This document shows positions 7,407 through 46,603 of a DNA stretch of 52,097 nt, in pieces. This DNA comes from Minisyncoccota bacterium. Lineage in GTDB: Bacteria; Patescibacteriota; Minisyncoccia; UBA6257. Position 1 is the stretch's first letter. Each line of letters begins with the position of its first letter. The translations under genes were made by a program, and so were the position numbers. The notes under the pieces were generated by a model. That model made no database searches, was not told the DNA's origin, and saw only the letters and a program-made list of their open reading frames with translations. The stretch spans positions 1 through 52,097 of the forward strand of contig JAQTTC010000002.1 of assembly GCA_028711005.1 (NCBI GenBank), read 5' to 3'.

Positions 7407-8223
7407 TATAGTAAAAAGATAAATAATTAGCTAGGGTAATAGAGTTATAATAAGGCTTTTGATCCCATGACTTATATGAAGAATTATTACCATCAATTGC
7501 AATAATTAAGCCTAAATCTTGCCAAGGCAAAAAAAGAGATGAACGTCTCCCTAAAACAACCAGAGATTCTTTAGAATTAACTTTTTGCCATAAAGCATTA
7601 AACTCTTTAACTTTTAAATCAGTTGAGGCAATTAAAATAGGTTCTTCAATCTCTCTCAATAGACGAGAATAATAATATTCCTGATGTAAAACAGTAGGAA
7701 CTAAAATTAATACTTGTTGTTTTTTTATTAAGCAATTCTTTATTTCTTTTAAAAGTAAATTGAAATCATTAGAAAAGTTAAAACTCTTTTGTTTTGTTTG
7801 AAAGTTTTTTAATTCAATAGGGGCTGAGATTTTAAAATATTCTGGAAAATCACTTAATGATAAATTTTCTGTATATTTTATTAAAGATTTAATTCTTGGA
7901 GGTAAAATAGTTTTTAAAGATAAAGAAATAGGAGAAAAATAATAACGAGAAATAAAATCTGCTAAGATAAAAAACAATGGGGGAACAATGGGTTTTGATG
8001 ATAATATCTTATCTATTGGTTTTAAAGAAAAATGCGCTGTTTTTAAAAAAGCTTTTCTTAAAGAAACATTATCAGATTTTAAAACAACTGCTGTAATTTT
8101 TCTTTTATTTAAAGAAACTTCAACTAAAATTCCTCTTTCAAGCTTGTCTTTAGAGAAATAAGAAAAAATTTGTGGTTGACCAATAGGAATATTGGTTAGA
8201 GGAACAACATCAAGAATAAACAT
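7375..8223 (-). CDS. priA: primosomal protein N' (PriA), N-terminal part: 3'-DNA-binding domain and degenerate helicase lobe 1
   Basis: ILDVVPL...GQPQIFSY...GILVEVSLNKRKITAVV is the PriA N-terminal fold. VLILVPTV, VVLGRRSSLFLP and LGLIIAIDGNNSSYK align to PriA lobe-1 blocks. It ends at TAA 7375-7377, 32 nt inside the next ORF. Confidence 0.8.
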   Translation of the reverse strand: MFILDVVPLTNIPIGQPQIFSYFSKDKLERGILVEVSLNKRKITAVVLKSDNVSLRKAFLKTAHFSLKPIDKILSSKPIVPPLFFILADFISRYYFSPISLSLKTILPPRIKSLIKYTENLSLSDFPEYFKISAPIELKNFQTKQKSFNFSNDFNLLLKEIKNCLIKKQQVLILVPTVLHQEYYYSRLLREIEEPILIASTDLKVKEFNALWQKVNSKESLVVLGRRSSLFLPWQDLGLIIAIDGNNSSYKSWDQKPYYNSITLANYLSFYYNADITCYQNY

Positions 8224-12680: not shown

Positions 12681-13862
12681 TTATTCTAACTCTTCTTCCA
12701 CTTCTTTTTTACTAACATTATTTGAAGAAAGATATTTATATTCTTGTTCTATCTTTTCTGCCTCTTTTATTTTATCTCTTAATTCTTGAGGAATCTCTTT
12801 AAGAACTCTATCAAGTTTTTTAGGATCAATTGCTAATATTCTTTCCCATTTATCCAAAGGCTCTAAAACTTCCTTAAGTTTTTTAATGTTATATGAAACT
12901 TTATTTTTTGTGGTTCTACAAAAATATCCATTTTCTCCAAAAACACGTTTTAAACCTCTTTGATTGCAATAAACATCAATTAAATTTCTTAAACTTTCTA
13001 ATTCTTTTTCTATCCCTTCTCTTTTGTCTTTAAGCTCAAAATATTTATCAATCTTTTGTTTAATATCAAGTTCATTAACATCACTTTTTGATTGACCTTC
13101 ATAAAGATGCCTCCAAATTGGGCAAATATTACGATAACCACACCAACCGCATAGGGCTGAGGACCGAGGCTCAAAATTACTTTTTTCTATCTTATGAATT
13201 AATTGAATAACTTTTTCTTTACTTTCTTCTAGATCCTGTTCTGTTCTTTGAGTTTTAATCTTTTCATTGAATTTAAGAAAATACAAGCTAAGAGTTAATT
13301 TGTCTATCTTAGTTCTAGGCCAACGACTTTTTAATCCAATAGCATAAAAAGATAATTGATCATTCGAATCAACGCTTCTTTGAGAAGCAACACGTTTACC
13401 TGTTTTATAATCTATAATTTCAATTGTTCCGTCTGGTAATTTATCTATTCTATCAATAATTCCAGTCAAAATATGTTTACCATTTTGCTTGCCAGGATTC
13501 TCGTCAATAGTAACTTCAAATCTAGTTTCTAAATCAAGAATTGAGGTTTGGTGAGGAATATTTGCTTTATAATATTCTTCTAAAATTCTCATTCCTTCTT
13601 TGAAATAAGAATGTTCTTCTTCAGAATCTTGCCATTCAAATCCTTCAGATTTTTTAGGCCAATGTTCTTTATAATAATCAAGCAAGGCATCCAGAGTAGG
13701 GAAGTAAGGGTCTTTCTGATAAAACCATTTTAAAACTTTATGAATATAGGTACCAAAAACAGCCTCCTTACTTTTAGGCTCTTTTATTTTATCTATTTGT
13801 GAAAATTTATATTTTAGAGGACACTGTTTAAAATTTTCTAAACTGGAATAACTTATTCTCAT
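12681..13862 (-). CDS. PD-(D/E)XK nuclease, RecB/Cas4-like, with four-Cys (Fe-S type) signature
   Basis: N-terminal SLENFKQCPLKYKF. Nuclease core GIIDRIDKLPDGTIEIIDYKTGK (D...ExK-type). C-terminal CGWCGYRNIC, which with Cys14 gives the C...CxxCx5C pattern of Cas4/AddB nucleases. A roughly 130-aa Lys/Glu-rich helical tail follows. Confidence 0.85.
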   Translation of the reverse strand: MRISYSSLENFKQCPLKYKFSQIDKIKEPKSKEAVFGTYIHKVLKWFYQKDPYFPTLDALLDYYKEHWPKKSEGFEWQDSEEEHSYFKEGMRILEEYYKANIPHQTSILDLETRFEVTIDENPGKQNGKHILTGIIDRIDKLPDGTIEIIDYKTGKRVASQRSVDSNDQLSFYAIGLKSRWPRTKIDKLTLSLYFLKFNEKIKTQRTEQDLEESKEKVIQLIHKIEKSNFEPRSSALCGWCGYRNICPIWRHLYEGQSKSDVNELDIKQKIDKYFELKDKREGIEKELESLRNLIDVYCNQRGLKRVFGENGYFCRTTKNKVSYNIKKLKEVLEPLDKWERILAIDPKKLDRVLKEIPQELRDKIKEAEKIEQEYKYLSSNNVSKKEVEEELE

Positions 13863-13917
13863 AAATAATTAACAAAAATATGTTTCATTTTATCATGTAT
13901 TTAATATATTTTCTATA

Positions 13918-13946
13918 TTGACAGTTATTATAATTATTGATATAAT
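13918..13946 (+). promoter_or_regulatory. near-perfect consensus sigma-70 promoter of the small-gene cassette
   Basis: TTGACA (13918-13923), exactly 17 nt, TGA-TATAAT (extended -10; TATAAT at 13941-13946). Confidence 0.7.
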
Positions 13947-14000
13947 AAGGATATTTGTAACTTGAAAACCGAATAAAAAATAAAGAAAGGGGGATTAAGA

Positions 14001-14228
14001 ATGAATTATCAGATGGAATTGTTTGAAAGAATACCTAAGATTAAAAGAAATAAAAAGGATAAGAAAAAAAAGAAATATTTTCTTGTAACAATAGTAGAAG
14101 ATGATGGTAATGAAATTAAAACTGGAAGATGGGCGTATTCAGAAAACCAAGCAAAAAGGAATATAGCCAAAGATTATAACAAGAAAAAAGGATTTGTAGA
14201 AGATCACTACATTCAGTTTAAATTATGA
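14001..14228 (+). CDS. hypothetical 75-aa Lys-rich protein (cassette gene 1)
   Basis: AAGGGGG SD 7 nt before the ATG and a TGA stop. The N-terminus MNYQMELF precedes a KRNKKDKKKKK tract. No family recognised. Confidence 0.7.
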   Translation: MNYQMELFERIPKIKRNKKDKKKKKYFLVTIVEDDGNEIKTGRWAYSENQAKRNIAKDYNKKKGFVEDHYIQFKL

Positions 14229-14243
14229 AAAAGGAGGTAGGTG

Positions 14244-14495
14244 ATGCAACAACTAAATTTCTTTAGTCCAAAAAAAGGAAGCTATGTAGATATAACTGAT
14301 GGAAAAGAAAAACCATATAGAATCTGGCTATCAAAAAATAAAAAATTCTCTTTGAGCGAGGCAATACAAGAAGCTTTAAAAGTTTACAACAAAGAAAAAG
14401 GGATTAATTTAACTAAAGATAATAATCTTGTAGGATTTGGAGAAATTGTATTAAATGGAAAAATATTTAGAAAGAAGAAAAAGGAGGTAAGATAG
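14244..14495 (+). CDS. hypothetical 83-aa Lys-rich protein (cassette gene 2)
   Basis: AAGGAGG (14231-14237) lies 6 nt before the ATG at 14244; the track uses the GTG at 14241. N-terminus MQQLNFF. No family recognised. Confidence 0.7.
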   Translation: MQQLNFFSPKKGSYVDITDGKEKPYRIWLSKNKKFSLSEAIQEALKVYNKEKGINLTKDNNLVGFGEIVLNGKIFRKKKKEVR

Positions 14496-14496
14496 A

Positions 14497-14748
14497 TTGA
14501 AAGGAACATTCAACGGATGGTTTGATTTAAAAACCGGAGAAATCAATATTCATGTTTGCTATTCTCGTAATAAAGAAAGTTTAAAACTGATACAAGAAAT
14601 GAAAAAAGATTTTAGAAAATGGTGGAAGAAATTTGCTAAAAAAAATCCGGTAGAAAATATACAAGAAAAAAACTGTTCTTTTAAAGATTGTGAAATTTAT
14701 ATAAAGAAAAGAAAAAAATCAATTGACAACAAAGGATATAATGAGTAA
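14497..14748 (+). CDS. hypothetical 83-aa basic protein (cassette gene 3), TTG start
   Basis: AAGGAGG (14481-14487) lies 9 nt before the TTG at 14497, which is 1 nt after the previous stop. Sequence is Trp/Lys-rich (FRKWWKKFAKK). No family recognised. Confidence 0.62.
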   Translation: MKGTFNGWFDLKTGEINIHVCYSRNKESLKLIQEMKKDFRKWWKKFAKKNPVENIQEKNCSFKDCEIYIKKRKKSIDNKGYNE

Positions 14749-14755
14749 ATATATA

Positions 14756-14780
14756 GCGGCAGGAGATTGACTTCTGCCGC
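14756..14780 (+). terminator. GC-rich hairpin after cassette gene 3 (leaky terminator or RNA-stability/processing element)
   Basis: GCGGCAG (14756-14762) pairs with CTGCCGC (14774-14780) around an 11-nt loop. It is followed by AAAATTTT rather than a clean T-run, and the next SD starts 11 nt later. Confidence 0.4.
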
Positions 14781-14806
14781 AAAATTTTAGAAGGAGGGGT
14801 TAAAAA

Positions 14807-14971
14807 ATGATTTCCATTGGTATATCTCTTGTAATTATGGGAATTTTATTCACATGTTTTCTAAATATAGTATGGGAAAATATTGCTAACACTGAAAAAA
14901 TGAGCCCAATAATAGCCTTGGCCATAACCTTTCTTTTCTTGCTCCCAGGATTAATAATTATAAAATTATAA
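14807..14971 (+). CDS. 54-aa two-TM membrane protein (MISIGISLVIMGILFTCFLNIVWENIANTEKMSPIIALAITFLFLLPGLIIIKL), not in supplied track
   Basis: AAGGAGG (14791-14797) lies 9 nt before the ATG. There are two hydrophobic helices separated by WENIANTEKM. An intrinsic terminator begins 13 nt after the TAA. The track instead lists the antisense ORF 14800..14982, which has no SD. Confidence 0.62.
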   Translation: MISIGISLVIMGILFTCFLNIVWENIANTEKMSPIIALAITFLFLLPGLIIIKL

Positions 14972-14983
14972 TTCATTATCATT

Positions 14984-15015
14984 ACCGGTGAGGATTATTC
15001 CTAACCGGTTTTTTA
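14984..15015 (+). terminator. intrinsic terminator closing the small-gene cassette
   Basis: accggtgagga (14984-14994) pairs with tcctaaccggt (14999-15009), 10 of 11 bp, around a 4-nt loop. It is followed by TTTTT (15010-15014). Confidence 0.65.
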
Positions 15016-15025
15016 TTATAAAATT

Positions 15026-15976
15026 TTATCTTCCTCCTCCATGAAATTTTTGATGAATTTCCCGGAGTTTTTTGTTAGTAACATGAGCATAAATTTGAGT
15101 AGCAGCAATGTTTTTATGACCCAAAAACTCTTGAAGAATTCTTATATCTACTCCTTGAGCTAGAAGATCAGTGCTAAAAGAATGCCTCATAACATGGGGA
15201 GTAGTATTTAAAGGTAATCCAGCCATCACAACATATTTCTTCATTGATTTTTCAATAGAACGATTAGTTAATCTTCTGGATGCATTTTTCTTACTCCGAT
15301 AGTTTATGAACAGAGCCTTGTCATCATCTTTTCGAGTTTCTAAATACTTACTTAACCAATGGAGAGCTCTTTCTGAAAAATATACCGTTCTCATTCTATT
15401 TCCTTTACCAATAATGCTTAATTCTAGTTCCTCTTTGCTATTTGGTTTAATTTTAATTTGATTACGATCAAGAGCCGTGAGCTCTGAGATACGCATTCCA
15501 GTAGAAAAAAGTATTTCTAAGATAGCTCTATCGCGCAATCCTTGTATTTTTGAAACATCAGGTGCTTTAAATAATTTTTCTAATTGTTCTAACACTAAAA
15601 AGCGAACCTGTTTATCACCTTTATCTCTAGCTAATTGTATTTTCTCTGTTGGTAAAGATAAAATATCCTTATCAGCGAAATAATTCAAAAGGGACCTTAA
15701 GGCGATTAAATAATAATTCTGTGTAGTTTTCTTCAAAGGTTGACCAGAATGATTAACACATTGGCGAGATAAAAAAACTCTATAATTCCAAACATGATCA
15801 GAGGACAATTCATGAGGTTTTAGATTACTTAATTTATTCTTTTCTAGCCAATCTAAAAACCTCTTTAAAAACCTAGCGTAGTTTTCTTGAGATTTTGAAG
15901 ATAATCCTTTTTGAATTTCTAACCAATCCAAAAAATCGTTTAAATAGGAGGGGATTGATCTATTGCTTTTTTCCAT
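15026..15976 (-). CDS. tyrosine site-specific recombinase (XerC/XerD-like)
   Basis: N-terminal SAM-like core-binding domain (YLNDFLDWLEIQKGLSSKSQENYARFLKRF). Catalytic region GMRISEL ... HVMRHSFSTDLLAQGVDIRILQEFLGHKNIAATQIYAHV supplies the R, HxxR, H and Y residues. Confidence 0.9.
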   Translation of the reverse strand: MEKSNRSIPSYLNDFLDWLEIQKGLSSKSQENYARFLKRFLDWLEKNKLSNLKPHELSSDHVWNYRVFLSRQCVNHSGQPLKKTTQNYYLIALRSLLNYFADKDILSLPTEKIQLARDKGDKQVRFLVLEQLEKLFKAPDVSKIQGLRDRAILEILFSTGMRISELTALDRNQIKIKPNSKEELELSIIGKGNRMRTVYFSERALHWLSKYLETRKDDDKALFINYRSKKNASRRLTNRSIEKSMKKYVVMAGLPLNTTPHVMRHSFSTDLLAQGVDIRILQEFLGHKNIAATQIYAHVTNKKLREIHQKFHGGGR

Positions 15977-17789: not shown

Positions 17790-17835
17790 GATATTTATAT
17801 ATTATACTATACCACGAAACAAAGACTTAGGAAAG

Positions 17836-19062
17836 TTATAATTGATTAACTATTTCTTTAGCAATATCTTGAGCAGCATTAAGTTTAGCAAATTGAAAAG
17901 CTGCTGAACTCATTGCTTTTTTCTTTTTTTCATCAAAAAGTACCTGAAGAATAAGATCTGAAAAAATATTAGTTTTTAAATTATTTTCTTCAACTACTAT
18001 CGCTGCCCCATTTCTTGCATATTCATAAGCATTTCTCTTTTGATGACCTCGGCTCGCCCAAGGCAAAGGAATAAGAATAGAAGGTTTTTTAGAAGCAGCA
18101 ATTTCAAAAATTAAACCACTACCTGCTCGAGCAATAATTAAATCACTAACTAAATAAATATCTTTTAAGGAAGAAATATTTGGTGTTTTAGTTTCTTCAA
18201 AAAAAGGAACTGGGTGATAATATTTTTCGAATTCTTTATCCCTAATAATTTCTTGAAAAACAACAGTAGCCTCCCTAACAACCTTTTGATAATTATCTTT
18301 TCCGGTTTGATGAATAATCTCTGCTTTATTAATAACTCTTGGCAAAATATCTAAAATAAAATCATTAATATGACTAGACCCTTGAGATCCTCCAATAACT
18401 GTGATCACTGGCCTGTCTGAACTTAATTTTAATAATTCTTTAATATTTTGAGAATTATAACTCTCCCCTTCCCCTGAGAATAAATCTAACCTTATTGGAT
18501 TTCCTGTTAATAAACTTTTGTTTAAAGGAAAATATTTTTTTGTATAATCAAAAGAAATAAAAATTTTTCGACAAAACTTCCCAACAAGATGATTAACTAA
18601 CCCTGGAACAGCATCACTTTCATGAGTATAAGTTGGAATAAAGAAAATAATTCCCCAAAAAATCACCGGAAAAGCACCATAGCCTCCTTTTGAAAAAATA
18701 GCATCTGGCATCAAAATAAAAAGATAATAAAGTGACTGGAAAATACCTCCTAAGGTTTTAAATAAATTAACAAAAAAATTAATAAACCCTGACAACCTTC
18801 CATTTGAATCACCTTGACGATTTAATTTACCAGTAGTGATTTTTCTAATTGTTATCCCCTCTTCTTTTAAAATGTAAGGTAAAGTAAAGTCATTAGGTCC
18901 AATATAAATAATTTCATAAAGAAAATTTTTCTCTTGAGCTATTTTTTTAAATTCTCTAGCAACAGCAATTAAAGGAAAAGTATGCCCCCCAGAACCACCT
19001 CCGGTAAGAACCAAACGAATTGTTCTACTAAAAGATCTTGATTTTAAAAATGAAATATCCAT
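17836..19062 (-). CDS. murG: undecaprenyldiphospho-muramoylpentapeptide beta-N-acetylglucosaminyltransferase
   Basis: LTGGGSGGHTFPLIAVA glycine loop, THESDAVPGLVN, and C-terminal ARAGSGLIFEIAASKKPSILIPLP. Confidence 0.9.
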   Translation of the reverse strand: MDISFLKSRSFSRTIRLVLTGGGSGGHTFPLIAVAREFKKIAQEKNFLYEIIYIGPNDFTLPYILKEEGITIRKITTGKLNRQGDSNGRLSGFINFFVNLFKTLGGIFQSLYYLFILMPDAIFSKGGYGAFPVIFWGIIFFIPTYTHESDAVPGLVNHLVGKFCRKIFISFDYTKKYFPLNKSLLTGNPIRLDLFSGEGESYNSQNIKELLKLSSDRPVITVIGGSQGSSHINDFILDILPRVINKAEIIHQTGKDNYQKVVREATVVFQEIIRDKEFEKYYHPVPFFEETKTPNISSLKDIYLVSDLIIARAGSGLIFEIAASKKPSILIPLPWASRGHQKRNAYEYARNGAAIVVEENNLKTNIFSDLILQVLFDEKKKKAMSSAAFQFAKLNAAQDIAKEIVNQL

Positions 19063-19081
19063 TATTATTTATTGATTATTA

Positions 19082-20176
19082 TCATGTTTGTTTTGCTATA
19101 TTACTTAAAAGCCCGATACTAACTAAATTAATAATCAAAGAGGAACTACCATAACTAATAAAAGGCAAAGGAATACCTGTAATAGGAAAAATTTGACACA
19201 TTGCTCCGATATTAATAAAAGCCTGAAAACCAATATTACAAATTAATCCAACCGCTAAGAACTTACCAAATTCATCAGGCGCTCTCTTAGCTATTTTAAA
19301 ACCAATTGAAATTAAAATCAAAAAAAGAATAATAATTATTAAAGAACCGACAAAACCAAATTCTTCTGCAATAATTGAAAAAATCGCATCAGTATGACTC
19401 TCTGGAAGATAATTAAATTTTTGAATAGATCTTCCAAAACCAATTCCTAGCAAACCCCCGGAACCAATACCTAATAATGATTGAATAATATGATACCCTT
19501 GGCCTAAAGGATCTTGTTGGGGAGATAGAAAAGATGTAATTCTCTGCCAACGATAAGGGGTTACTTTAATAATAAAACCCAAGACTAAGGTTCCTACCAA
19601 TCCAAAAAATAAAAATTGAAAAATACTCAACCCAGCAGTTAAATAAACCATTAGACTCGATAGAGCAAGAACCACTAAGCTTCCAGTTGCTGGTTGTTGA
19701 ATAATGATATAACCAATCACAAACAAACTGATTAAGAAGCAAATAAAAGGAAAACCACCTAATTTTTTTCTTTTTTTAACTGAAAAACTGCTTAAAAGAG
19801 TCGCCAAAAAGAGAATATAGCTTATTTTTAAAAGTTCTGATGGTTGGAAGTTTATGAACCCAATATTAATCGATCGACTTGCTGTAACCCCAGAAGATTG
19901 AAAAGCAGGAACAAAACAAAGAAGCAACAAAGCAATATTAAGAATTAAAATAGCTAAAGCATATTTTTTCCAAAAATGATAATCAATCCTTGAAAAAACC
20001 CAAGCAGCAATTAACCCAATTAAAACTCCCTGGAAAAGCTGTCTTTTAACAAAATAATAGACATCACCATATCTCTGTTCACCAATTACAGCTGAAGCGC
20101 TTATTAAAGCTATTAAGCCAATAAATAAAATTAATAGACTAAAAGTGATAAGAAGTTGATTCAATTTGTTGCGCAT
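19082..20176 (-). CDS. ftsW: SEDS-family peptidoglycan glycosyltransferase (FtsW/RodA)
   Basis: Polytopic membrane protein with FQPSELLKISYILFLA and LPESHTDAIFSIIAEEFGFVG blocks. It lies adjacent to murG. Confidence 0.9.
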   Translation of the reverse strand: MRNKLNQLLITFSLLILFIGLIALISASAVIGEQRYGDVYYFVKRQLFQGVLIGLIAAWVFSRIDYHFWKKYALAILILNIALLLLCFVPAFQSSGVTASRSINIGFINFQPSELLKISYILFLATLLSSFSVKKRKKLGGFPFICFLISLFVIGYIIIQQPATGSLVVLALSSLMVYLTAGLSIFQFLFFGLVGTLVLGFIIKVTPYRWQRITSFLSPQQDPLGQGYHIIQSLLGIGSGGLLGIGFGRSIQKFNYLPESHTDAIFSIIAEEFGFVGSLIIIILFLILISIGFKIAKRAPDEFGKFLAVGLICNIGFQAFINIGAMCQIFPITGIPLPFISYGSSSLIINLVSIGLLSNIAKQT

Positions 20177-20264
20177 ATTGTATTAATACATTGTATAATA
20201 TTTTTCTTTGAATCTCAAACAAAATTAAGTTATAATACTAATAATATTAATCAATAAATATATT

Positions 20265-21584
20265 ATGAAGAAAATTCTACTTGTTTTTTTAATAATTATT
20301 ATCTTAGGAATTGGAGTATTTTTTGCTTTCTCTTATTATCAAAAAGATTCTGGCCCTCAAGGAATTTTAAGACTTAAAGCCTATCCTTCTGAAGCCATCT
20401 TAAAAATTAATAATAAAGATTACCAGGACAAACAAGGATCTTTTAATATTAAACTAAATCCTGGAAAATATAATATATTGTTATCTATTCCTGATTATTC
20501 TTTTATTGAGACTGGGATAAATATTGAAAGTGGAAAAATCGTTGATCTAGGAGAATATTTTCTTTTTCCTAATAATCCCAAAAAAGAAGATGTAATTCTT
20601 GATGAAGATATTAGTTATTTTTATTTAACACCTGATTCAAATCGTATTGTGTATATCAATAAATCGTCTAAATTTAAATGGTATCTTTTTAATCGAAACA
20701 CTCAAGAAAAAGAACTTTTCTGGGAAACATCTTCCTTACCTTTAGATATTAATTTTTCTTCTAAAAAGCTCGTAACTAATTTAGGTAATAATAATTGGCG
20801 AATCGCTTTTTTACCTAAAAGCTTAATTCAAAATAGTGTTTCCTTAACTGATGCTTTTAAAAAGGCGCTCACTGATGCTGAACTTAAGAAAGGAACAACC
20901 TCTCTCAATATTATTCAGGCCAATTTTTACTCTCAAGAAGATAGCAACTTAATTATTAGAACTGAAGATGCATTCTATCTTTTAAATTTTTTAACTGGGG
21001 ACATAGAAAGAATATATGAAGGAGAAAGTTCTCCATTCTTCGTAGATGAAAATTATGTATATTTTATAAAAGAAAACGGTGTTTTTACTAAAATATCTTT
21101 TGAAACAAAAGAAGAAAATCAAATTTCTTTATACAGTTTTTCAATTGAAAATCTAGAAGATACTAAAATTAGAAAGAAGAACGATAATGATGAATTTTTA
21201 ATTATTGAAGGCTCTCAAAAAGCTTCCTATCTTCAATCCCCTGAAAGTTTACCTTCTATCATTGGAGAAAATATTATTGACGGAAATTTCTCTTTGGATA
21301 AAAAAGAAATTCTTTTAGTTTCTAAAAATAAGATTGAAATTTATGATTTAGAAAAGGATATAAAATCTTCACAAACACTTTATAGTGATACCCCTGCCAT
21401 TTGGTTTCTTAATAATGATCATCTTTTATTTCTCAAAGATCAAAGTTTGAATATTTTCCTTGTTAAAGAAAATAAAATCTGGCCCTTAGCCAGTAATGTT
21501 AAAAACAATAATTTTATATACGATCCCTCAATAAATTATATTTTTTATCTCTCTGATGAAGGTATTTTAAAAATCGGGATTTAA
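20265..21584 (+). CDS. hypothetical membrane-anchored protein with PEGA domain
   Basis: N-terminal TM helix. GILRLKAYPSEAILKINNKDY...GKYNILLSIPDYSFIETGINIESGKIVDLG fits the PEGA beta-sandwich pattern. The long C-terminal region is repeat-like and beta-rich. Confidence 0.65.
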   Translation: MKKILLVFLIIIILGIGVFFAFSYYQKDSGPQGILRLKAYPSEAILKINNKDYQDKQGSFNIKLNPGKYNILLSIPDYSFIETGINIESGKIVDLGEYFLFPNNPKKEDVILDEDISYFYLTPDSNRIVYINKSSKFKWYLFNRNTQEKELFWETSSLPLDINFSSKKLVTNLGNNNWRIAFLPKSLIQNSVSLTDAFKKALTDAELKKGTTSLNIIQANFYSQEDSNLIIRTEDAFYLLNFLTGDIERIYEGESSPFFVDENYVYFIKENGVFTKISFETKEENQISLYSFSIENLEDTKIRKKNDNDEFLIIEGSQKASYLQSPESLPSIIGENIIDGNFSLDKKEILLVSKNKIEIYDLEKDIKSSQTLYSDTPAIWFLNNDHLLFLKDQSLNIFLVKENKIWPLASNVKNNNFIYDPSINYIFYLSDEGILKIGI

Positions 21585-30733: not shown

Positions 30734-32194
30734 TTAGTCAATATTTGCCTCTTCTTCAAAGTCAGCATCAATTAAAATATTAATTTTTTGCAAAGAGTTA
30801 GGAACTTTTTTAATCCAAAAAGGCCAAAACTTTATTTTTACTTCATCAATCCCAGGATTATTCTTAAAAATTTCATCTAATTCTTCTTGATTTTTTCCAA
30901 TAACCGAACTTTTTATTTCATCTAAATCAAGCTGATGACATAAGGTTTGATTAACTTTTATAGTCACCTTAAGAGTTCCTTTATCAAAATCTGTTTCCAG
31001 ATCTGAATATTCTATTTCTAAATCCTTACAAAAATTATAATTTTCGTCTCTATCTTCTTCTAAAACTCCCTGAACATATTTAATAATATTATTTTCATCA
31101 AAAGCAATAACTTTTACCGTCATTTCTGCTTCAACAGTAAATTTATCTACATAATCGCCTAATTCAGCATTACTGCTTAGCTTGCTAATATTAACACCAC
31201 TTTTTGCTCCTGTTAAAATTGTTAATCCTTGAGGAACTTTATTTTCTAAGTCTTGGTTTATTGAATTTATTACTTTATCTAAAATAACACTCTCTGCATT
31301 TTTAATATCTTCTGAAGAAACTACTGGTACTGAGCCTGAACTACCTCCAGCCATTGCATTTTTAGAAACCCCATAAAAACCATCAAACTCTGGCATTCCT
31401 TTAAACCCAGGAATACTAAATTTACAATCAGGTAAATTACAAGCTTCTATATTATAGTCTGCCCCAGGTTGATCAGCTGTAACTTTTACATCTATTGTTG
31501 AAGGAACTAATTTCCCATTTTCAGTAGTTGCTCCAGGAACAACAGTTCTAGAATCTAAACGAAATATTTTATGATCAGGTGTTTCAAAACGAGTTGTTGC
31601 TACTAAAATCTGCGGTGAAGTAGAGTAGTTGTTATAAATTGTAATTATACCTTTTGCTTTTTTTTCATCTTTGCCTTGACCAGTACTTGTAAATTCCTCT
31701 GTTTCCGTAGAATTAAAAGAAAATAGATTACCGGGAATTATTGCTTTAGTAGTATCAATTGAAGAAACATTAGTATCAACTAAAATCTCTTTTGAAAAAG
31801 GAATTTCCATCTTCCGGCTACTAATCAGGATTTCAGCTCGAGCTAACCCTATAAACCCTAAATAATACAAAAATGCCAGAGTAACTGGAATCATAAAATA
31901 CATAAACATTCTTAATCCTTTTTTCTTTTTCTCTTGTGATGAAGAATCAATAATCATTGGTTCTTCTGACTGTTTTTCTTCTCTTATTTTTTTAATCTCT
32001 TCTTGCGTTTCTGGACTAGTTTCCATTCGTGTAATCATGATTGATTCTTCTTTCATGCTTAAGCTTATTTCATTTTCTTCTTGTATTTCTGGCTCTTCAT
32101 TTTCTTCAATCTCTTCAGAAAAAAAATTAGACTTCAATTCATGAGGCGAAAAAATATCTTTAACTTTTTTTCTTTTTTGTGGAGAATTTTCCAT
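30734..32194 (-). CDS. hypothetical bitopic membrane protein with acidic N-terminus and large extracytoplasmic beta-rich domain
   Basis: 486 aa. The Glu-rich cytoplasmic head is followed by one TM helix (MFMYFMIPVTLAFLYYLGFIGL) and about 370 aa with no catalytic motif I recognise. Confidence 0.7.
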   Translation of the reverse strand: MENSPQKRKKVKDIFSPHELKSNFFSEEIEENEEPEIQEENEISLSMKEESIMITRMETSPETQEEIKKIREEKQSEEPMIIDSSSQEKKKKGLRMFMYFMIPVTLAFLYYLGFIGLARAEILISSRKMEIPFSKEILVDTNVSSIDTTKAIIPGNLFSFNSTETEEFTSTGQGKDEKKAKGIITIYNNYSTSPQILVATTRFETPDHKIFRLDSRTVVPGATTENGKLVPSTIDVKVTADQPGADYNIEACNLPDCKFSIPGFKGMPEFDGFYGVSKNAMAGGSSGSVPVVSSEDIKNAESVILDKVINSINQDLENKVPQGLTILTGAKSGVNISKLSSNAELGDYVDKFTVEAEMTVKVIAFDENNIIKYVQGVLEEDRDENYNFCKDLEIEYSDLETDFDKGTLKVTIKVNQTLCHQLDLDEIKSSVIGKNQEELDEIFKNNPGIDEVKIKFWPFWIKKVPNSLQKINILIDADFEEEANID

Positions 32195-40161: not shown

Positions 40162-41709
40162 TTAATTATCTTGATGAAAAATATTCTTAATTATATTTTT
40201 AATTTCTCCTTGATTTGGTTGTACTTTAGGTTTTGATGGTTTCATTGTTTCAGATCCTGGATTTTTGTTCTGAGCTCTTTTTATTTCCCGAAAACAATCT
40301 TCACAATAAACAGGTCTAGAAGGATCAGGCTTAAAAGGAACAATGATTCTTTTACCGCACTGAGAGCAAGTTGCTTCCCAACCTTCTTTAGTTCCAAACT
40401 TCTCATCTCTTGATTTTGTCTCTCTACTAGGAGAAAAATCTAAAAGCTCCCAATGAGCAATGTTTCTTTCTACTTCTTGCCGTGGAGCAGAATATTGATT
40501 TCGGGAATATTCTATTATTTCTTGAATGTAAGATTTTTGAGGCAAACTTGATGGAGGAATATTCATAGCTGAAAAACTCTTAGATAAAACCCCGTCAATC
40601 ATTAACTTTATATAAAAATTATAATTAGGAAGGTTTATTAAATCTTCTTTAACAAATTCAGGGGCAAAATATTTTTCTAAAAATTCTGCATCTTCAGGAC
40701 CCAACCTAAAAGAAACTAAGGTACCAATATTACCAAAAATTGAATCTTTAACTTTTTCATTAAGCTGAGCAATATATTGATGAGCTAAAGCTAAATTTAA
40801 ACGATATTTTCTAGCTTCAGCAAAAATATTAGCAAATGATTCAGTAGAAAAATTTTGAAATTCATCTACATACAAATAAAAATCTTTTCTTTGTTCTTCT
40901 AAAATCTCTACTCTCTCCATAGCTGCTAATTGTATCTTTGTAATTAAAAGAGCACCTAATAGAGTAGAATTATCTTCGCCAACCAATCCTTTGGATAAAT
41001 TAGCTAAAAGAATCTTTCCTCCGTTCATAATTTCTTTAATATCAATCTTTGGTTCTTTTTGTCCAATAATATTTCTAATCAAAGGATTTGAAATAAACTG
41101 ACCTACTTTATTTTGAATTGGAGCAATTGCTTCTGTAGCAAAACGAGTGTTATAACGAGCAAATTCTCTTTCCCAAAAAGATCTTACTATTGGATCAGTT
41201 ACTTTTTTCATTACTGCCTGGCGAAAATCTTCATCAGCTAATAAACGATTAATACTTAATAAAGTTGAATCTGGGTATTCTAATAAGGCTAATAAGGCGT
41301 TATTCAAAATATATTCCATTCTTGCTGACCAAACATCAGGCCAAATCTTTTTAAAAACTCCCATCAATCCAGCAACAACTAAATGACGATGTTCCAAAGG
41401 AACATTTTCAATTACGTTAAAAGCAATCGGCCATTCAACATCACCAGGATTAAAATAGATAACATCTTTTATTCTATTCTCTGGAATAAAATAAAGGATA
41501 CGATTAACTAACTCTCCGTGAGGATCAATTACTCCAACACCTTTTCCATTATTAATATCCTGAATAATCATATTTTCCATCATTGTTGTCTTTCCAACGC
41601 CACTCTTTCCTACAAAATACATATGCCGACGTCGATCATCAGGCTTAATACCAAATCTTTGGTATTCATCTCTAAAATTTGTTATTCCGATATAATTTAT
41701 GTCTTCCAT
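40162..41709 (-). CDS. TraD/TraG/VirD4-like (type IV coupling protein-like) P-loop ATPase, no TM anchor, C-terminal zinc ribbon
   Basis: Walker A FVGKSGVGKTT, Walker B FYLYVDEFQNF, ARKYRLNLALAHQYIAQL block. No hydrophobic N-terminus. C-terminal CSQCGKRIIVPFKPDPSRPVYCEDC (CxxC-x17-CxxC). Confidence 0.75.
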   Translation of the reverse strand: MEDINYIGITNFRDEYQRFGIKPDDRRRHMYFVGKSGVGKTTMMENMIIQDINNGKGVGVIDPHGELVNRILYFIPENRIKDVIYFNPGDVEWPIAFNVIENVPLEHRHLVVAGLMGVFKKIWPDVWSARMEYILNNALLALLEYPDSTLLSINRLLADEDFRQAVMKKVTDPIVRSFWEREFARYNTRFATEAIAPIQNKVGQFISNPLIRNIIGQKEPKIDIKEIMNGGKILLANLSKGLVGEDNSTLLGALLITKIQLAAMERVEILEEQRKDFYLYVDEFQNFSTESFANIFAEARKYRLNLALAHQYIAQLNEKVKDSIFGNIGTLVSFRLGPEDAEFLEKYFAPEFVKEDLINLPNYNFYIKLMIDGVLSKSFSAMNIPPSSLPQKSYIQEIIEYSRNQYSAPRQEVERNIAHWELLDFSPSRETKSRDEKFGTKEGWEATCSQCGKRIIVPFKPDPSRPVYCEDCFREIKRAQNKNPGSETMKPSKPKVQPNQGEIKNIIKNIFHQDN

Positions 41710-41721
41710 AAAAATTAATTT

Positions 41722-42945
41722 TTATCCTGTTGGTAATCCTATTGGTGGCTCTCCTTTCTTGCTTAAGACTCTAGTAAGAACTGGGGTTTTCATTTGCATT
41801 GTTGGAAAATGATAAATTGTTGCTAATTCTTCTGGCGTTAAAATCATTGATTTTTTCTCTGGTTTTCTTTTAGAAGCTGCCTGGTAAAAATTTCTTTTTT
41901 TAAGAAATGCTCTTCTTGTTTTAAATAACTTTGCTTTACTTTCTGTTGTAGCTTCTTTATTAACTTTAAAAGCATTTAAGTTCTTAGAATTAAACTGCTT
42001 TAAGAAAGCCATAAAACCAATAGCTTTTGATTCATTAAAAATTTTATTAGGAGCAACATAGATCACTCTAATCCCTGTCTTAAAAGACAATTGATTTATT
42101 TTTTTATCAATAGCATTAATTATTTCCTTTTTTCCTGAAGAGACTTCTTTTGGAGAATCTTCTTTTTTTTCTCCTTCTCCTGGCCAAACTGGAGCTACTG
42201 CTATTGCCACTAAAAGATTTTTAATAAAAGCTGCTATCCATTCTGGCCAAGTAGCTGCTTTTTTCTCTTTTTTCCCTAATAATTTATCTGTTTCTTTTTT
42301 TCCTTCTTCTGCTAATTTTTTCTCTTCATCCTCAGATAAAGGCTTAAGAAAGATTTGAAAAATACACCATTCTGATCTTTCTAAACTACCAAAAGTTTCT
42401 GCTAAACTAGCCATAGGGTCAATTCTTCTTTCTTCTTTTTTTTCTTCGAAATATGAATAAGTTTTAATCGGATAACAATTTGCTTTATTAAAAATAATTT
42501 CTGTTCCCCATAAATTAAGTTCTTTGTTAGGTAAATTTGGAGCTACACTTAAAAAATAATCATCAATTTCTTTTAACTCTATTTCTGGATATTGAGAATA
42601 AAATTGAGAAATTACCAAGTTTTTATATTCTTTAGGAGCCCGAATAATAAAATGTATTTCTCGATTAATACCAACTATCTCTAAACAAATACACCCTTTT
42701 TCAATAACACTCAAGCTATTAAATACCTGCTCCATTGCTTTTGGAGTTTGTAAAATTTCACGATTAATCTTTGCCTCTAAAATTACCCAGTCTTTTGGTT
42801 CTTTTTTTTCTTTCTTTACTTTTTTTTGATATTCTCTTCTTAAATTAATATAAAATCGCCCTAAAATAATCAGGGCAATAAGCCACCAAAACTCCCGGAA
42901 AATCTCCAAGAAAAAAAATGAAACTTCTTTTAAAAAGTAAGGCAT
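41722..42945 (-). CDS. hypothetical N-terminally anchored membrane protein partnered with the coupling-ATPase-like gene
   Basis: 407 aa with a single N-terminal TM helix (FWWLIALIILGRFYI). A Lys/Glu-rich soluble body carries a second hydrophobic patch (WIAAFIKNLLVAIAVAPVW). The start overlaps the upstream stop as TAATG. No family recognised. Confidence 0.7.
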   Translation of the reverse strand: MPYFLKEVSFFFLEIFREFWWLIALIILGRFYINLRREYQKKVKKEKKEPKDWVILEAKINREILQTPKAMEQVFNSLSVIEKGCICLEIVGINREIHFIIRAPKEYKNLVISQFYSQYPEIELKEIDDYFLSVAPNLPNKELNLWGTEIIFNKANCYPIKTYSYFEEKKEERRIDPMASLAETFGSLERSEWCIFQIFLKPLSEDEEKKLAEEGKKETDKLLGKKEKKAATWPEWIAAFIKNLLVAIAVAPVWPGEGEKKEDSPKEVSSGKKEIINAIDKKINQLSFKTGIRVIYVAPNKIFNESKAIGFMAFLKQFNSKNLNAFKVNKEATTESKAKLFKTRRAFLKKRNFYQAASKRKPEKKSMILTPEELATIYHFPTMQMKTPVLTRVLSKKGEPPIGLPTG

Positions 42946-44057
42946 TAAACCTCAAGTATTTTATACGACTTTACTAAAGTATAACACTTATTCGGCAATT
43001 TCTTAAAATATTTTTTATTATGAAGATTAAGAATAATAGTATTATCTTTAGCCATTCTTCTGTTTTTTACTTCTTTAATAATTTCTTCTTGTTTTAAAGG
43101 TTTTCCTGCTTCTTTCAAAACATCCTGGATAACATTAACTATTTTACCTGGTTTATACCCTCTTTCTTTAAGAGCATAAATACCTCGGCCAATTAAAACA
43201 AACCTTGAGTCTCTAATTAATTCATTGTGAACTGTTTGAACACAAACTCTTTTTTGCCAAGAGTGAGAAGACAAACGAGGATAAACCGGAGATTTATTTA
43301 TTTCATTTAATAATTTTGTAATCTTTGAAAAATGCAATGGTTCTTCAGCGTGCTTCATTGCTAAATATGCTCTGTCTCGAGCTCCTGAAGGATCAATCTC
43401 TGCCCAATTAAATAAACCATATTCTCCAAAAGGATTCATTCCAATCTTTTTAGATATTCTAAAATAGGCTTGTAACTCTTCTTCATTTGTGCTAGAAGAC
43501 ATATTTTTTTTAGCCCAAGACAAGATCTCTTCTAATAAACAAGCTTTCTTTCTATCCTTTAAATATTTTTCTAATACTTTGATATTTTTATTAATCTTAT
43601 CTTTAGAAAGATTAGTGAAATGCCAAAAACTATAATTTAATCTATTCTCTTCTTCTCTTATAAAATCAGGATTAAGAATTAATAAAAATTTAATTGCTGA
43701 AAGATTTCCTTTAGATTCATTTTTAGCACCAAAACTTCTATCTATTTTTTTAAGAAATTCTTCCTCTTCTTCTAATCCTCCACTTTTTTTTAAGAGCAAC
43801 TTGCTTGTATTAAAAAAACCACCGACCATTTCTGAAAGCGGTTGTTTTCGAATAGTTTTTAAAGCTGCTTCTATAATTTGCCTCACTCTTTCCCGAGTAA
43901 TTGTATAATCCCGACCCACTGCTTCTAATGTTTTAGGCTTATTATCATCTAGTCCAAATCTTTTTCTAACAATACTCTGAGTTCGGGAAGGAAGAATAGC
44001 AATAATTTGTAAAGATAATTGCTGAGGGTTATTTTGATTTAAAAATTCTTTATTCAT
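42945..44057 (-). CDS. DNA-binding protein: sigma-70 region-4-like HTH followed by two HARE-HTH-like winged helices
   Basis: RKRFGLDDNKPKTLEAVGRDYTITRERVRQIIEAALKTIRK matches the sigma region 4.2 pattern, but no region 2 or 3 is present. ARDRAYLAMKHAEEPLHFSKI...RFVLIGRGIYALKE and IVNVIQDVLKEAGKPLKQEEIIKEV resemble HARE-HTH. Confidence 0.7.
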   Translation of the reverse strand: MNKEFLNQNNPQQLSLQIIAILPSRTQSIVRKRFGLDDNKPKTLEAVGRDYTITRERVRQIIEAALKTIRKQPLSEMVGGFFNTSKLLLKKSGGLEEEEEFLKKIDRSFGAKNESKGNLSAIKFLLILNPDFIREEENRLNYSFWHFTNLSKDKINKNIKVLEKYLKDRKKACLLEEILSWAKKNMSSSTNEEELQAYFRISKKIGMNPFGEYGLFNWAEIDPSGARDRAYLAMKHAEEPLHFSKITKLLNEINKSPVYPRLSSHSWQKRVCVQTVHNELIRDSRFVLIGRGIYALKERGYKPGKIVNVIQDVLKEAGKPLKQEEIIKEVKNRRMAKDNTIILNLHNKKYFKKLPNKCYTLVKSYKILEV

Positions 44058-44065
44058 GTTTATTA

Positions 44066-44094
44066 ATTAAAGCAAAATTTAGCTTAAAAGTCAA
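44066..44094 (-). promoter_or_regulatory. candidate sigma-70 promoter of the HTH/membrane/ATPase trio (leaderless geometry)
   Basis: On the minus strand: TTGACT (44089-44094), a 17-nt spacer, TTTAAT (44066-44071). Only 8 nt remain to the ATG at 44057, and there is no SD. Confidence 0.45.
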
Positions 44095-46429: not shown

Positions 46430-46603
46430 CTAGATCCCAATCTGAATTGTTACTTTTAAAAAGTACAAAATTATAGCTAAAAAAATTAAGGTCGCAAAGA
46501 CCCCAGCAATAAACCCAGAAAGAGAAGAAGCTATAGTTGTTCCAATTTTAAATTTAAAATCTCGTGGCTCTTCAGAAACAAAATCTCTAGTTAGTTTAGA
46601 CAT
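46430..46603 (-). CDS. possible 57-aa tail-anchored membrane peptide (MSKLTRDFVSEEPRDFKFKIGTTIASSLSGFIAGVFATLIFLAIILYFLKVTIQIGI)
   Basis: The only sizeable ORF in the 459-bp gap between secD and tRNA-Lys. It has a charged head plus one TM helix. The RBS is weak (AAAGG), there is no clear promoter, and it is below the track cutoff. Confidence 0.3.
   Translation of the reverse strand: MSKLTRDFVSEEPRDFKFKIGTTIASSLSGFIAGVFATLIFLAIILYFLKVTIQIGI

Follow-up and report, generated by a model that had tools for sequence, protein, structure and literature searches.

A large part of bacterial diversity belongs to Patescibacteria, whose tiny genomes keep very few non-essential genes. Orphan homologues of the type IV coupling proteins (T4CPs) have already been published for them (2025; PMC12102498): the VirD4-type homologues number 5,713 proteins in 2,918 of 3,035 genomes (96%), about two per genome, and 148 of the 5,713 lie near virB4. 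In the same survey, VirB4 was recorded in 2,417 of the 3,035 genomes (~80%), elsewhere on the chromosome, relaxases were rare, and the authors, who could not assign the T4CPs a function, considered exaptation possible. In Candidatus (Ca.) S. epibionticum, the t4cp homologue is non-essential and the genes of the type IV secretion system (T4SS) are essential (PMC12102498), and the T4SS cluster of this organism contains no recognisable coupling or relaxase protein (Wang et al.). Here, we analyzed a stretch of 52,097 nucleotides (nt) of contig JAQTTC010000002.1, hereafter the window, in which the gene for a coupling-type ATPase is the last of three tightly packed genes, referred to as the trio.

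The three genes are all encoded on the minus strand:

Positions 42945-44057, minus strand: gene 1, 370 amino acids (aa)
Positions 41722-42945, minus strand: gene 2, 407 aa
Positions 40162-41709, minus strand: gene 3, 515 aa

The gene boundaries given in an earlier note on this DNA, the TAATG overlap that joins genes 1 and 2 at 42945, the 12 nt that separate genes 2 and 3 (41710-41721), and the promoter elements described below were all re-read in the sequence. The motifs quoted in that note were also found in the translations, namely TLEAVGRDYTITRERVRQIIEAAL in gene 1 and GKSGVGKT, YVDEFQNF, ARKYRLNLALAHQ and CSQC...CEDC in gene 3. The tight packing is not specific to the trio, as ddl begins just 3 nt past gene 3. 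The comparisons below suggest that genes 2 and 3 encode a two-piece, membrane-anchored motor of the coupling type, with the gene 1 product as a partner, and that the three form a core module that would work without a VirB4 channel; we hold this reading at about even chances.

The window has a G+C content of ~29% throughout, and the composition of the trio is the same as that of its flanks. The proteins of the window recur unchanged on several metagenome contigs as well as in two NCBI assemblies, GCA_028716545.1 and GCA_028691035.1. Because the homologues are named Paceibacterota, Minisyncoccia or Parcubacteria, the source organism is a member of Patescibacteria, also called the Candidate Phyla Radiation (CPR). 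Homologues of each of the trio proteins number from hundreds to thousands.

The gene 3 product has the features of a soluble VirD4/TrwB-type P-loop ATPase with an all-alpha insertion, predicted to be helical at residues ~105-230, a C-terminal zinc ribbon and a basic tail. In the Pfam scan, TrwB_AAD_bind matched residues 22-337 (E 2.9e-9), and TraG-D_C and DUF87 also matched; among the NCBIfam models, those of TraD (6e-13) and VirD4-like proteins were matched. The VirB4-type NCBIfam models were weak (VirB4_plasma, 2e-6; CD1110, 0.0066), and no VirB4-type ATPase signature of Pfam (CagE_TrbE_VirB / AAA_10) was observed. The Walker B motif YVDEFQNF (FYLYVDE from residue 277) and the TraD/TraG/VirD4 block ARKYRLNLALAHQ (ARKYRL...HQ) are present in addition to the following elements:

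Positions 41587-41610, minus strand: Walker A motif GKSGVGKT (gene 3 residues 34-41), with G34, G37, G39 and K40 invariant in the homologues
Positions 40285-40383, minus strand: treble-clef zinc ribbon, CxxC-x17-CxxC (CSQC...CEDC; gene 3 residues 443-475)

The ribbon was matched by zf_Tbcl_2 (PF23477; E 8.4e-14, 51.4 bits against a cut-off of 27) and by the equivalent TIGR04272 (53.1 bits against a cut-off of 36), and its cysteines C448, C451, C469 and C472 are each conserved in at least 90% of the gene 3 homologues. This domain type binds zinc in small proteins of M. mazei (PMC12704099). No hydrophobic segment was found in gene 3, for which the maximum Kyte-Doolittle window mean was 1.17.

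When the gene 3 family profile was compared with the sequences of the PDB, TrwB and DotL were the only matches. The AlphaFold2 (AF2) model of gene 3, with a predicted local distance difference test score (pLDDT) of 86.5, gave DotL, Cag-beta, HerA and TrwB as the best fold matches (E ~1e-12), and it superimposed on TrwB without its N-terminal 70 residues with a TM-score of 0.60-0.65. VirB4 was absent from the top 50 fold matches, and neither FtsK_SpoIIIE nor Ftsk_gamma was matched by Pfam at E values up to 0.1. By its sequence and predicted fold, gene 3 is a coupling-protein-type member of the HerA/FtsK superfamily. The description of gene 3 in the earlier note, as a VirD4/TraD-like ATPase without an anchor and with a zinc ribbon, is thus borne out, and the ATPase does not fall into an unrelated P-loop family, as sequence and predicted fold both group it with VirD4, TrwB, DotL and Cag-beta. 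Gene 3 has the catalytic motifs and the fold of a coupling protein; it has no anchor on the same chain, and no link to relaxase or VirB4 genes was found in the regions examined. It would work as a T4CP motor does, but its architecture and context set it apart from the standard members of the family. The family is very large, with at least 8,000 matches; identity to gene 3 does not fall below 56% in the top 120, and a close relative occurs in at least 592 species genomes.

Gene 2 encodes a transmembrane (TM) helix at residues ~8-30, followed by DUF8128 (PF26449). A precomputed PF26449 match exists for the exact gene 2 protein and for all of the homologues listed, and our local Pfam scan of gene 2 gave no match to PF26449. 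The gene 2 protein, which had earlier seemed unassignable to any family, therefore belongs to a family of 3,566 representative clusters, and in the searched literature nothing on DUF8128 was found. The N-terminal TM helix proposed earlier is present, and a second hydrophobic stretch that had gone unmentioned lies inside DUF8128 at residues 235-255 (42237-42183), WIAAFIKNLLVAIAVAPVWP. This second helix carries a conserved PVWP motif and lies in a lower-confidence insert of the model that the haloarchaeal homologue does not have; the segment may be re-entrant or embedded in the membrane. The EELATIYHFP motif at the C-terminus of gene 2 is conserved. Two terminator-like hairpins were seen within the 5' end of gene 2 (42855-42912, minus strand), overlapping the TM-coding stretch; such sites number 13 in the 34-47 kb region versus 4.7 +/- 2.0 in shuffled sequences, and the hairpins in gene 2 may be compositional.

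The neighbourhoods of relatives were examined in 80 species loci (locus numbers begin with L). In 72 of the 76 species loci with enough sequence, gene 2 immediately precedes gene 3, and the gene 3 ATPase occurs without gene 2 in L022, L068 and L073. In L067, an additional gene (17796-20240) encodes both parts as a colinear fusion of 814 aa, with DUF8128 at residues 67-367, the ATPase at residues 370-795 and a TM helix, and at the junction the conserved EE(I/L)A..(F/Y)HFP runs straight into the N-terminus of the ATPase. This fused paralogue, of ~800 aa, is itself widespread; it was found in at least 285 metagenome loci and was intact in 75 of the 80 examined (L101-L180). It has no zinc ribbon, and its conserved upstream partner is a helical protein of 125-148 aa with no family match. 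GtrA-like and dnaX genes were often seen downstream of it. The split trio and the fused paralogue lie within 8 kb of each other in six loci, and this co-occurrence fits the approximately two T4CP homologues reported per genome (PMC12102498).

The same arrangement was found outside Patescibacteria. For the plasmid of Bacillus sp. CMF21, the 870-aa protein USK31504.1 combines a DUF8128-like N-domain (hhalign 97.5%, E 6e-12) with a gene 3-like ATPase, and its gene adjoins those of a replication-relaxation protein, conjugal-transfer proteins and a VirB4-like ATPase. For the Haladaptatus plasmid, a DUF8128-like gene (hhalign 96.4%) lies directly upstream of a coupling-protein gene (WP_227356090.1 and WP_227356091.1) and directly downstream of the gene for a VirB4-like ATPase. 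The N-terminal extension of the Embleya plasmid T4CP showed weak similarity to DUF8128 (31%). Judged by the colinear fusions and the conserved pairing, gene 2 very probably represents the N-terminal part that the ATPase lacks, supplied in trans; the idea of an anchor in trans, raised when the locus was first noticed, is strongly supported by these fusions. The haloarchaeal cluster was also seen in its own context (L095, Haladaptatus salinisoli NZ_CP085328.1, 167896-182267), where a weak T4SS-pilin-like open reading frame (ORF), a 410-aa protein, a VirB4-like ATPase of 1,072 aa, the DUF8128-like protein and a 930-aa coupling protein are encoded on a plasmid whose record is typed 'non-mobilizable'. 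This cluster may be an undescribed haloarchaeal conjugation-type apparatus.

Genes 2 and 3 of the window share one reading frame, with TAA and four codons between them (41710-41724, minus strand). As a candidate read-through signal, the in-frame stop was rejected; frame sharing occurs in about one third of the relatives, which is near the chance rate, and the shared frame is probably not such a signal.

The AF2 model of gene 2 (pLDDT 81.6; predicted TM-score 0.74) was compared with the PDB by Foldseek. TrwK/VirB4 chains from the T4SS of R388 took all of the first 13 places (E 1e-5 to 1e-3; probability 0.98-1.0; TM-score 0.32-0.40), and unrelated flavoenzymes came next, at lower probability. 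At the sequence level, no match in the PDB was obtained even at E 10, no Pfam match was seen in 65 DUF8128 members, and the alignment of DUF8128 with the Bacillus and Haladaptatus VirB4-like proteins by hhalign yielded a probability of 0.1-0.2%. Because no sequence method supports it, the link between gene 2 and the VirB4 fold is rated as moderate. If the match is true, genes 2 and 3 together would have a VirB4-like layout with a VirD4-like motor.

The relation of the trio to the T4SS was examined in the window, in the sampled loci and in published survey tables. No T4SS or relaxase Pfam family was recorded for any called gene of the 52-kb window, in agreement with the earlier note, and no VirB4-like gene was detected within 10 kb of the trio in the 80 loci, in what was a limited phmmer test. 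The assemblies GCA_028716545.1 and GCA_028691035.1 are outside the survey tables of PMC12102498. Seven of the sampled loci belong to genomes whose VirB4 state is given in Table S1 of that paper:

L083, Azambacteria GW2011_GWA2_42_9: trio present, VirB4 No
L044, Wildermuthbacteria: trio present, VirB4 No
L058, Wildermuthbacteria: trio present, VirB4 No
L085, Wildermuthbacteria: trio present, VirB4 No
L032, Nealsonbacteria: trio present, VirB4 Yes
L049, Nealsonbacteria: trio present, VirB4 Yes
L082, Portnoybacteria: trio present, VirB4 Yes

In the accessible part of Table S1, 11 of 13 Wildermuthbacteria rows are VirB4-negative, and for Azambacteria GW2011_GWA2_42_9, Table S3 records two t4cp1 and TrsD and no VirB4, VirB3, VirB6 or VirB2 (PMC12102498). 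Although these genomes are drafts, the lineage-wide pattern argues for a function of the trio that can dispense with VirB4. The same is indicated by the strong conservation of gene 3, whose median identity across the loci is 58%, compared with 49% for SecD and 41% for SecF.

These observations bear on the alternative that the trio is an ordinary T4SS coupling protein encoded away from virB4, in which genes 2 and 3 would dock on VirB3/VirB6/VirB8/VirB4 and gene 1 would be an adaptor replacing the relaxosome protein. The DUF8128 and ATPase units beside VirB4-like ATPases and conjugal-transfer genes on the Bacillus and haloarchaeal plasmids are consistent with this alternative, as are the finding that true coupling proteins are the best structural matches of gene 3 and the prevalence of VirB4 in ~80% of Patescibacteria, in which t4cp is commonly unlinked from virB4 (PMC12102498); a VirB4-like N-domain could also take a VirB4-like position on the channel. 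However, the trio is intact and highly conserved in the four VirB4-negative genomes and in the mostly VirB4-negative Wildermuthbacteria, only 148 of the 5,713 T4CP homologues are near virB4, and t4cp is non-essential in Ca. S. epibionticum, unlike the T4SS genes (PMC12102498), whose cluster holds no recognisable coupling or relaxase protein (Wang et al.). In addition, gene 3 exceeds SecD and SecF in conservation, which is unusual for conjugation-type coupling proteins. We regard a dispersed T4SS coupling protein as possible but rather unlikely. The minimal translocation module suggested earlier stays a candidate as a stand-alone unit: VirB4 is recorded in 2,417 of the 3,035 genomes (PMC12102498), though the four trio-bearing genomes scored VirB4-negative favour independence from the channel.

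In the sampled loci, the usual gene order is secD, secF, gene 1, an optional ORF of ~73 aa with two TM helices, gene 2, gene 3, pgk, a recJ-like DHH gene and rnhA. Gene 1 lies upstream of the gene 2-gene 3 pair in 67 of 72 loci, so that, with gene 2 beside gene 3 in 72 of 76, the trio is conserved as a neighbourhood in relatives. Short gaps or overlapping stop and start codons separate the trio genes in many loci. The linkage to secD-secF was observed in 58 of 65 loci, and secA is nearby in ABY1-type loci. Because synteny alone is weak evidence here, the breakpoints are informative, and at these genes 1, 2 and 3 stay together. In the lineage of the window, ddl-dgkA-dnaG replaces the usual downstream genes and the trio is kept; in ABY1-type loci, mnmA/alaS/ftsA lie downstream and the trio is kept; in L100, gatCA stands in place of secDF upstream and the trio is kept; and in L093, L094 and L099, other genes lie downstream and gene 1 is still linked. 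The trio is a core-chromosomal, vertically inherited unit in Paceibacteria and ABY1-class Patescibacteria, and its role is probably a housekeeping one. The location within a housekeeping operon, as first described, is correct for the window, where ddl-dgkA-dnaG-rpoD lies downstream of the trio and secD/secF upstream; the downstream genes vary between lineages, most relatives having pgk, a recJ-like gene and rnhA there.

The optional ORF (~73-84 aa, two hydrophobic helices) was seen between genes 1 and 2 in ~18 of the 80 loci (for example L045:8351-8569, L028:8474-8695 and L100:7020-7274). The window, in which genes 1 and 2 overlap, does not have it. Neither this ORF nor the other small neighbours gave a Pfam match. 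It might encode a further membrane subunit.

The linkage to secD-secF in 58 of 65 loci, with secA nearby in ABY1-type loci, raises the alternative that the motor handles proteins, as an unfoldase or receptor working with the Sec pathway or another export route. DotL and Cag-beta, the top fold matches of gene 3, do serve the secretion of effector proteins. However, the trio is kept in L100 and a number of further loci where secDF is no longer linked to it, gene 1 is preceded by its own promoter, and the zinc ribbon, the basic tail and the helix-turn-helix (HTH)-rich partner point to nucleic acid. To our knowledge, no coupling between a T4CP and Sec has been described. A protein-handling motor is considered improbable.

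Vertical conservation also bears on the alternative that the trio is left over from an integrated mobile element or from an anti-phage defence system. PADLOC gave weak matches of gene 3 to mad8 (E 1.7e-12) and HerA and of gene 1 to MzaA and AbiLi, and relatives are found on plasmids. On the other side, the trio occupies the same place, with its genes in the same order, in dozens of species of two classes, its composition equals that of its flanks, no other defence or mobile-element parts are adjacent, and the MzaA match covers the sigma region 4 stretch only, with the AbiLi match weak and confined to the middle region. Membership in a defence system was rejected, as the PADLOC hits are partial P-loop and HTH matches with no partner components. 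The vertical conservation largely refutes a defence or mobile-remnant origin, which we consider very improbable.

The gene 1 protein consists of a sigma-70 region 4 domain, a helical middle part and two HARE-HTH-like winged helices, and it stops right after the second winged helix:

Positions 43845-44003, minus strand: sigma-70 region 4 domain (gene 1 residues 19-71; Pfam Sigma70_r4, E 1.5e-10)
Positions 42948-43376, minus strand: HARE-HTH-like region with two winged helices (gene 1 residues ~228-370)

Both domains had been read from the sequence before, the first from the region-4-like segment TLEAVGRDYTITRERVRQIIEAAL in the gene 1 translation, and both were confirmed. The Sigma70_r4 domain was found in 35 of 35 family members, and among PDB sequences the family profile matched primary sigma factors in their region 4 (E 5e-20). 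In the recognition helix, the residues TRERVRQI are kept throughout the family, with R55, E56, R57, R59 and Q60 invariant; we take these residues to be the ones that contact the -35 element, as in published structures of sigma4 on -35 DNA. The HARE-HTH match is weak in gene 1 of the window (Pfam, residues 308-338) and was obtained in 34 of 35 family members (best E 3e-16), and the N-terminal model of RNA polymerase (RNAP) delta, TIGR04567, matched residues 228-299 (E 1e-7; 31.9 bits, below the cut-off of 42). Family members share the conserved motif QTVHNELIxDxRFVLxGRGxYAL. Sigma regions 2 and 3 were not found in gene 1, and the NCBIfam sigma models cover residues ~6-84 only. Because regions 2 and 3 are absent, gene 1 is, by its domain content, not a sigma factor, as was stated in the earlier note. 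The possibility that gene 1 is the counterpart of the 'replication-relaxation' proteins beside the plasmid homologues was rejected (hhalign 0.2%).

The 8 nt between TTTAAT and the gene 1 start codon (ATG, 44057) place the following element immediately upstream of the trio:

Positions 44066-44094, minus strand: sigma-70-type promoter-like element (TTGACT at 44094-44089, 17-nt spacer, TTTAAT at 44071-44066)

A transcript from this promoter would be nearly leaderless. The element was not listed in a simple promoter scan, because its -10 hexamer does not have the consensus A at position 2, and promoter-like sites were not enriched in the A+T-rich region around the trio. Nonetheless, the promoter is supported by its conservation in relatives: TTGAC[AT] occurs in the 130 nt that precede gene 1 in 57 of 66 related loci, compared with 7.8% of random windows, and the full -35/-10 pattern was found in 27 of 66, compared with 1.25%. 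The usual form in L011-L090 is TTGACA-17-T(T/A)AAAT, often with TG upstream of the -10, and it is frequently 6-11 nt from the start codon. This short distance suggests that in this lineage gene 1 is translated without a leader or almost without one. Because the pattern is conserved upstream of gene 1, the trio appears to begin its own, nearly leaderless transcription unit.

A role for gene 1 in DNA recognition for the motor may be proposed, and its domains are equally typical of factors associated with RNA polymerase. According to the corresponding alternative, genes 2 and 3 alone are the unit, and gene 1 is a separate RNAP-associated factor, delta-like or a sigma region 4 decoy on the beta-flap or -35 DNA, that merely shares the block and the promoter. 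Sigma region 4 (E 5e-20) and HARE-HTH, the latter known from RNAP delta, are both RNAP binders, and some sources label the gene 1 family 'RNA polymerase delta subunit'. The genes secDF, pgk, recJ-like and rnhA are equally syntenic and yet functionally unrelated. In L046 and L089, no gene 1 lies between secF and gene 2, nor is there one beside the fused paralogue and the plasmid homologues, and in L045 and L062 further genes intervene between genes 1 and 2. In contrast, gene 1 stays by genes 2 and 3 when either flank changes, the conserved promoter precedes gene 1 and not gene 2, and stop and start codons overlap or are separated by very short gaps in many loci. A gene 1 product unrelated to the motor is a tentative, somewhat doubtful reading.

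Returning to the two-piece motor with the gene 1 partner, the following mechanism may be envisaged. Gene 2 would be the N-terminal half, with the TM helix and DUF8128 in a predicted VirB4/TrwK-like fold, and gene 3 would be the C-terminal half, with the VirD4/TrwB-like nucleotide-binding domain, the all-alpha domain, the zinc ribbon and the basic tail. By analogy with TrwB and HerA, gene 3 would form a ring that gene 2 tethers to the membrane, and ATP hydrolysis would drive the movement of a polymer, most likely DNA. Gene 1 would be co-transcribed from its own TTGACA-type promoter and act as a DNA-binding partner or regulator that has kept the -35-reading residues, and, together with the zinc ribbon and the basic tail, it may serve nucleic-acid recognition or regulation. 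The module would most likely be independent of a VirB4-based type IV secretion channel. The process served may be the handling of the chromosome at division, the exchange or uptake of DNA at host contact, or the delivery of substrates to the T4SS where one is present.

Several points weigh against this reading. The VirB4-like fold of gene 2 was obtained from Foldseek alone, at a modest TM-score of 0.32-0.40. The closest relatives of the pair outside Patescibacteria lie in conjugation-like clusters, and a channel-coupled role would be ancestral and may persist. The VirB4-negative genomes are draft metagenome-assembled genomes, and the hidden Markov model of the survey may miss a divergent VirB4. 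Because DotL and Cag-beta handle proteins, the structural matches to them would also be compatible with a protein substrate. The whole secDF-pgk-recJ-like-rnhA block is syntenic, so that adjacency alone is weak functional evidence, and the absences of gene 1 described above, in two loci and beside the fused paralogue and plasmid homologues, count in the same sense.

In a more far-reaching form, which we consider unlikely, the trio would be a core membrane DNA translocase without a secretion channel, in which a VirB4-like N-domain and a VirD4-like motor are split and a sigma-derived, -35-reading domain guides the motor. It would have an FtsK-like role in division or a role in DNA exchange or uptake at host contact, and would perhaps be an intermediate between VirB4 and VirD4. 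If the trio is a channel-independent DNA motor, it would represent a new housekeeping use of conjugation machinery and would bear on the divergence of VirB4 and VirD4. If it is instead the missing coupling protein, it would help to explain the cargo of the essential patescibacterial T4SS.

The Pfam records of the other called genes of the window show housekeeping functions, including those of fmt/def, priA, mur genes, ftsW, a ribosomal cluster and rpoA, as well as alaS, rpoD, dnaG, ddl, secDF, efp and glmS. The priA gene is split into two overlapping ORFs (6294-8223, minus strand), as it also is in the gene calls of a public assembly; one, of 282 aa, has the 3'-DNA-binding domain, and the other, of 370 aa, has a Cys-rich region, a weak Helicase_C and PriA_C. 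No clear DEAD-box lobe was detected in these ORFs. Between ribosomal protein genes and gltX, a DUF2800-type PD-(D/E)XK nuclease (393 aa) and a XerC/D-like tyrosine recombinase are encoded at 12681-15976 together with three small ORFs (75-83 aa), and this set may be the remnant of an integrated element. Just upstream of secD, a 57-aa ORF with a single TM helix and no family match (46430-46603, minus strand) might encode a YajC-like Sec accessory protein. Two conserved ORFs without a Pfam family were also seen, at 30734-32194 (minus strand, 486 aa) and 20265-21584 (plus strand, 439 aa).

Compared with known systems, the two parts of gene 1 resemble different proteins. It holds a genuine region 4 of the sigma-70 factors, but without regions 2 and 3. 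Its HARE-HTH modules are like those of the RNAP delta subunit (RpoE), but gene 1 has no acidic delta tail, and TIGR04567 matches below its cut-off and not at the N-terminus.

FtsK/SpoIIIE belong to the same superfamily as gene 3 and are membrane-anchored ring motors with winged-helix DNA recognition, a likeness that we draw as an analogy only. In the trio, no FtsK motor signature or gamma domain was found, and the anchor and the DNA-binding parts are separate proteins. In the searched literature, nothing was found on the presence or absence of FtsK in Paceibacteria.

For VirB4/TrwK, genes 2 and 3 read together have a similar layout, an N-domain followed by a RecA-like ATPase, whereas DUF8128 and the N-domains of VirB4-like proteins have no sequence similarity and the ATPase half, gene 3, resembles VirD4 and not VirB4. 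The DUF8128-ATPase proteins of Bacillus and Haladaptatus have the same two modules in the same order, either fused or adjacent, but they lie in conjugation-like clusters with VirB4-like ATPases and replication-relaxation proteins and have neither a zinc ribbon match nor a gene 1 partner.

The type IV coupling proteins (VirD4, TrwB, TraD, DotL and Cag-beta) gave the best sequence and fold matches of gene 3, with which they have in common the P-loop domain, the all-alpha insertion, the Walker motifs and the ARKYRL...HQ block. They differ in that they carry a TM anchor on their own chain, in a short N-terminal segment with two TM helices, whereas gene 3 has none and the trio uses a separate DUF8128 protein of ~400 aa. 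Gene 3 further adds the C-terminal zinc ribbon, and the trio is core-chromosomal, has no relaxase or VirB genes nearby and is also found in VirB4-negative genomes.

The orphan T4CP homologues of Quinonero-Coronel et al. (2025; PMC12102498) are almost certainly the same proteins as gene 3. In the accessible part of that paper, no mention of sigma or SecD was found, the passages on TrsD and N-terminal regions concern VirB4-linked proteins, and the DUF8128 partner, the split or fused pair, the zinc ribbon and the sigma region 4/HARE-HTH neighbour are apparently not described. In the literature that was searched, we likewise found no description of the division over two genes, of a VirB4-like fold for DUF8128, of the fused paralogue or the zinc ribbon, of gene 1 as a partner with its conserved promoter, or of the trio in VirB4-negative genomes, nor anything useful on TrwB_AAD_bind in Patescibacteria. 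To the published picture, the present comparison adds that the homologue is very probably half of a two-gene protein, the other half of which is predicted to be membrane-bound with a VirB4-like fold, together with the sigma region 4/HARE-HTH companion and its conserved promoter, the coexisting fused paralogue, and the persistence of the trio where VirB4 was undetected. The 'orphan t4cp' thereby becomes a defined, testable module.

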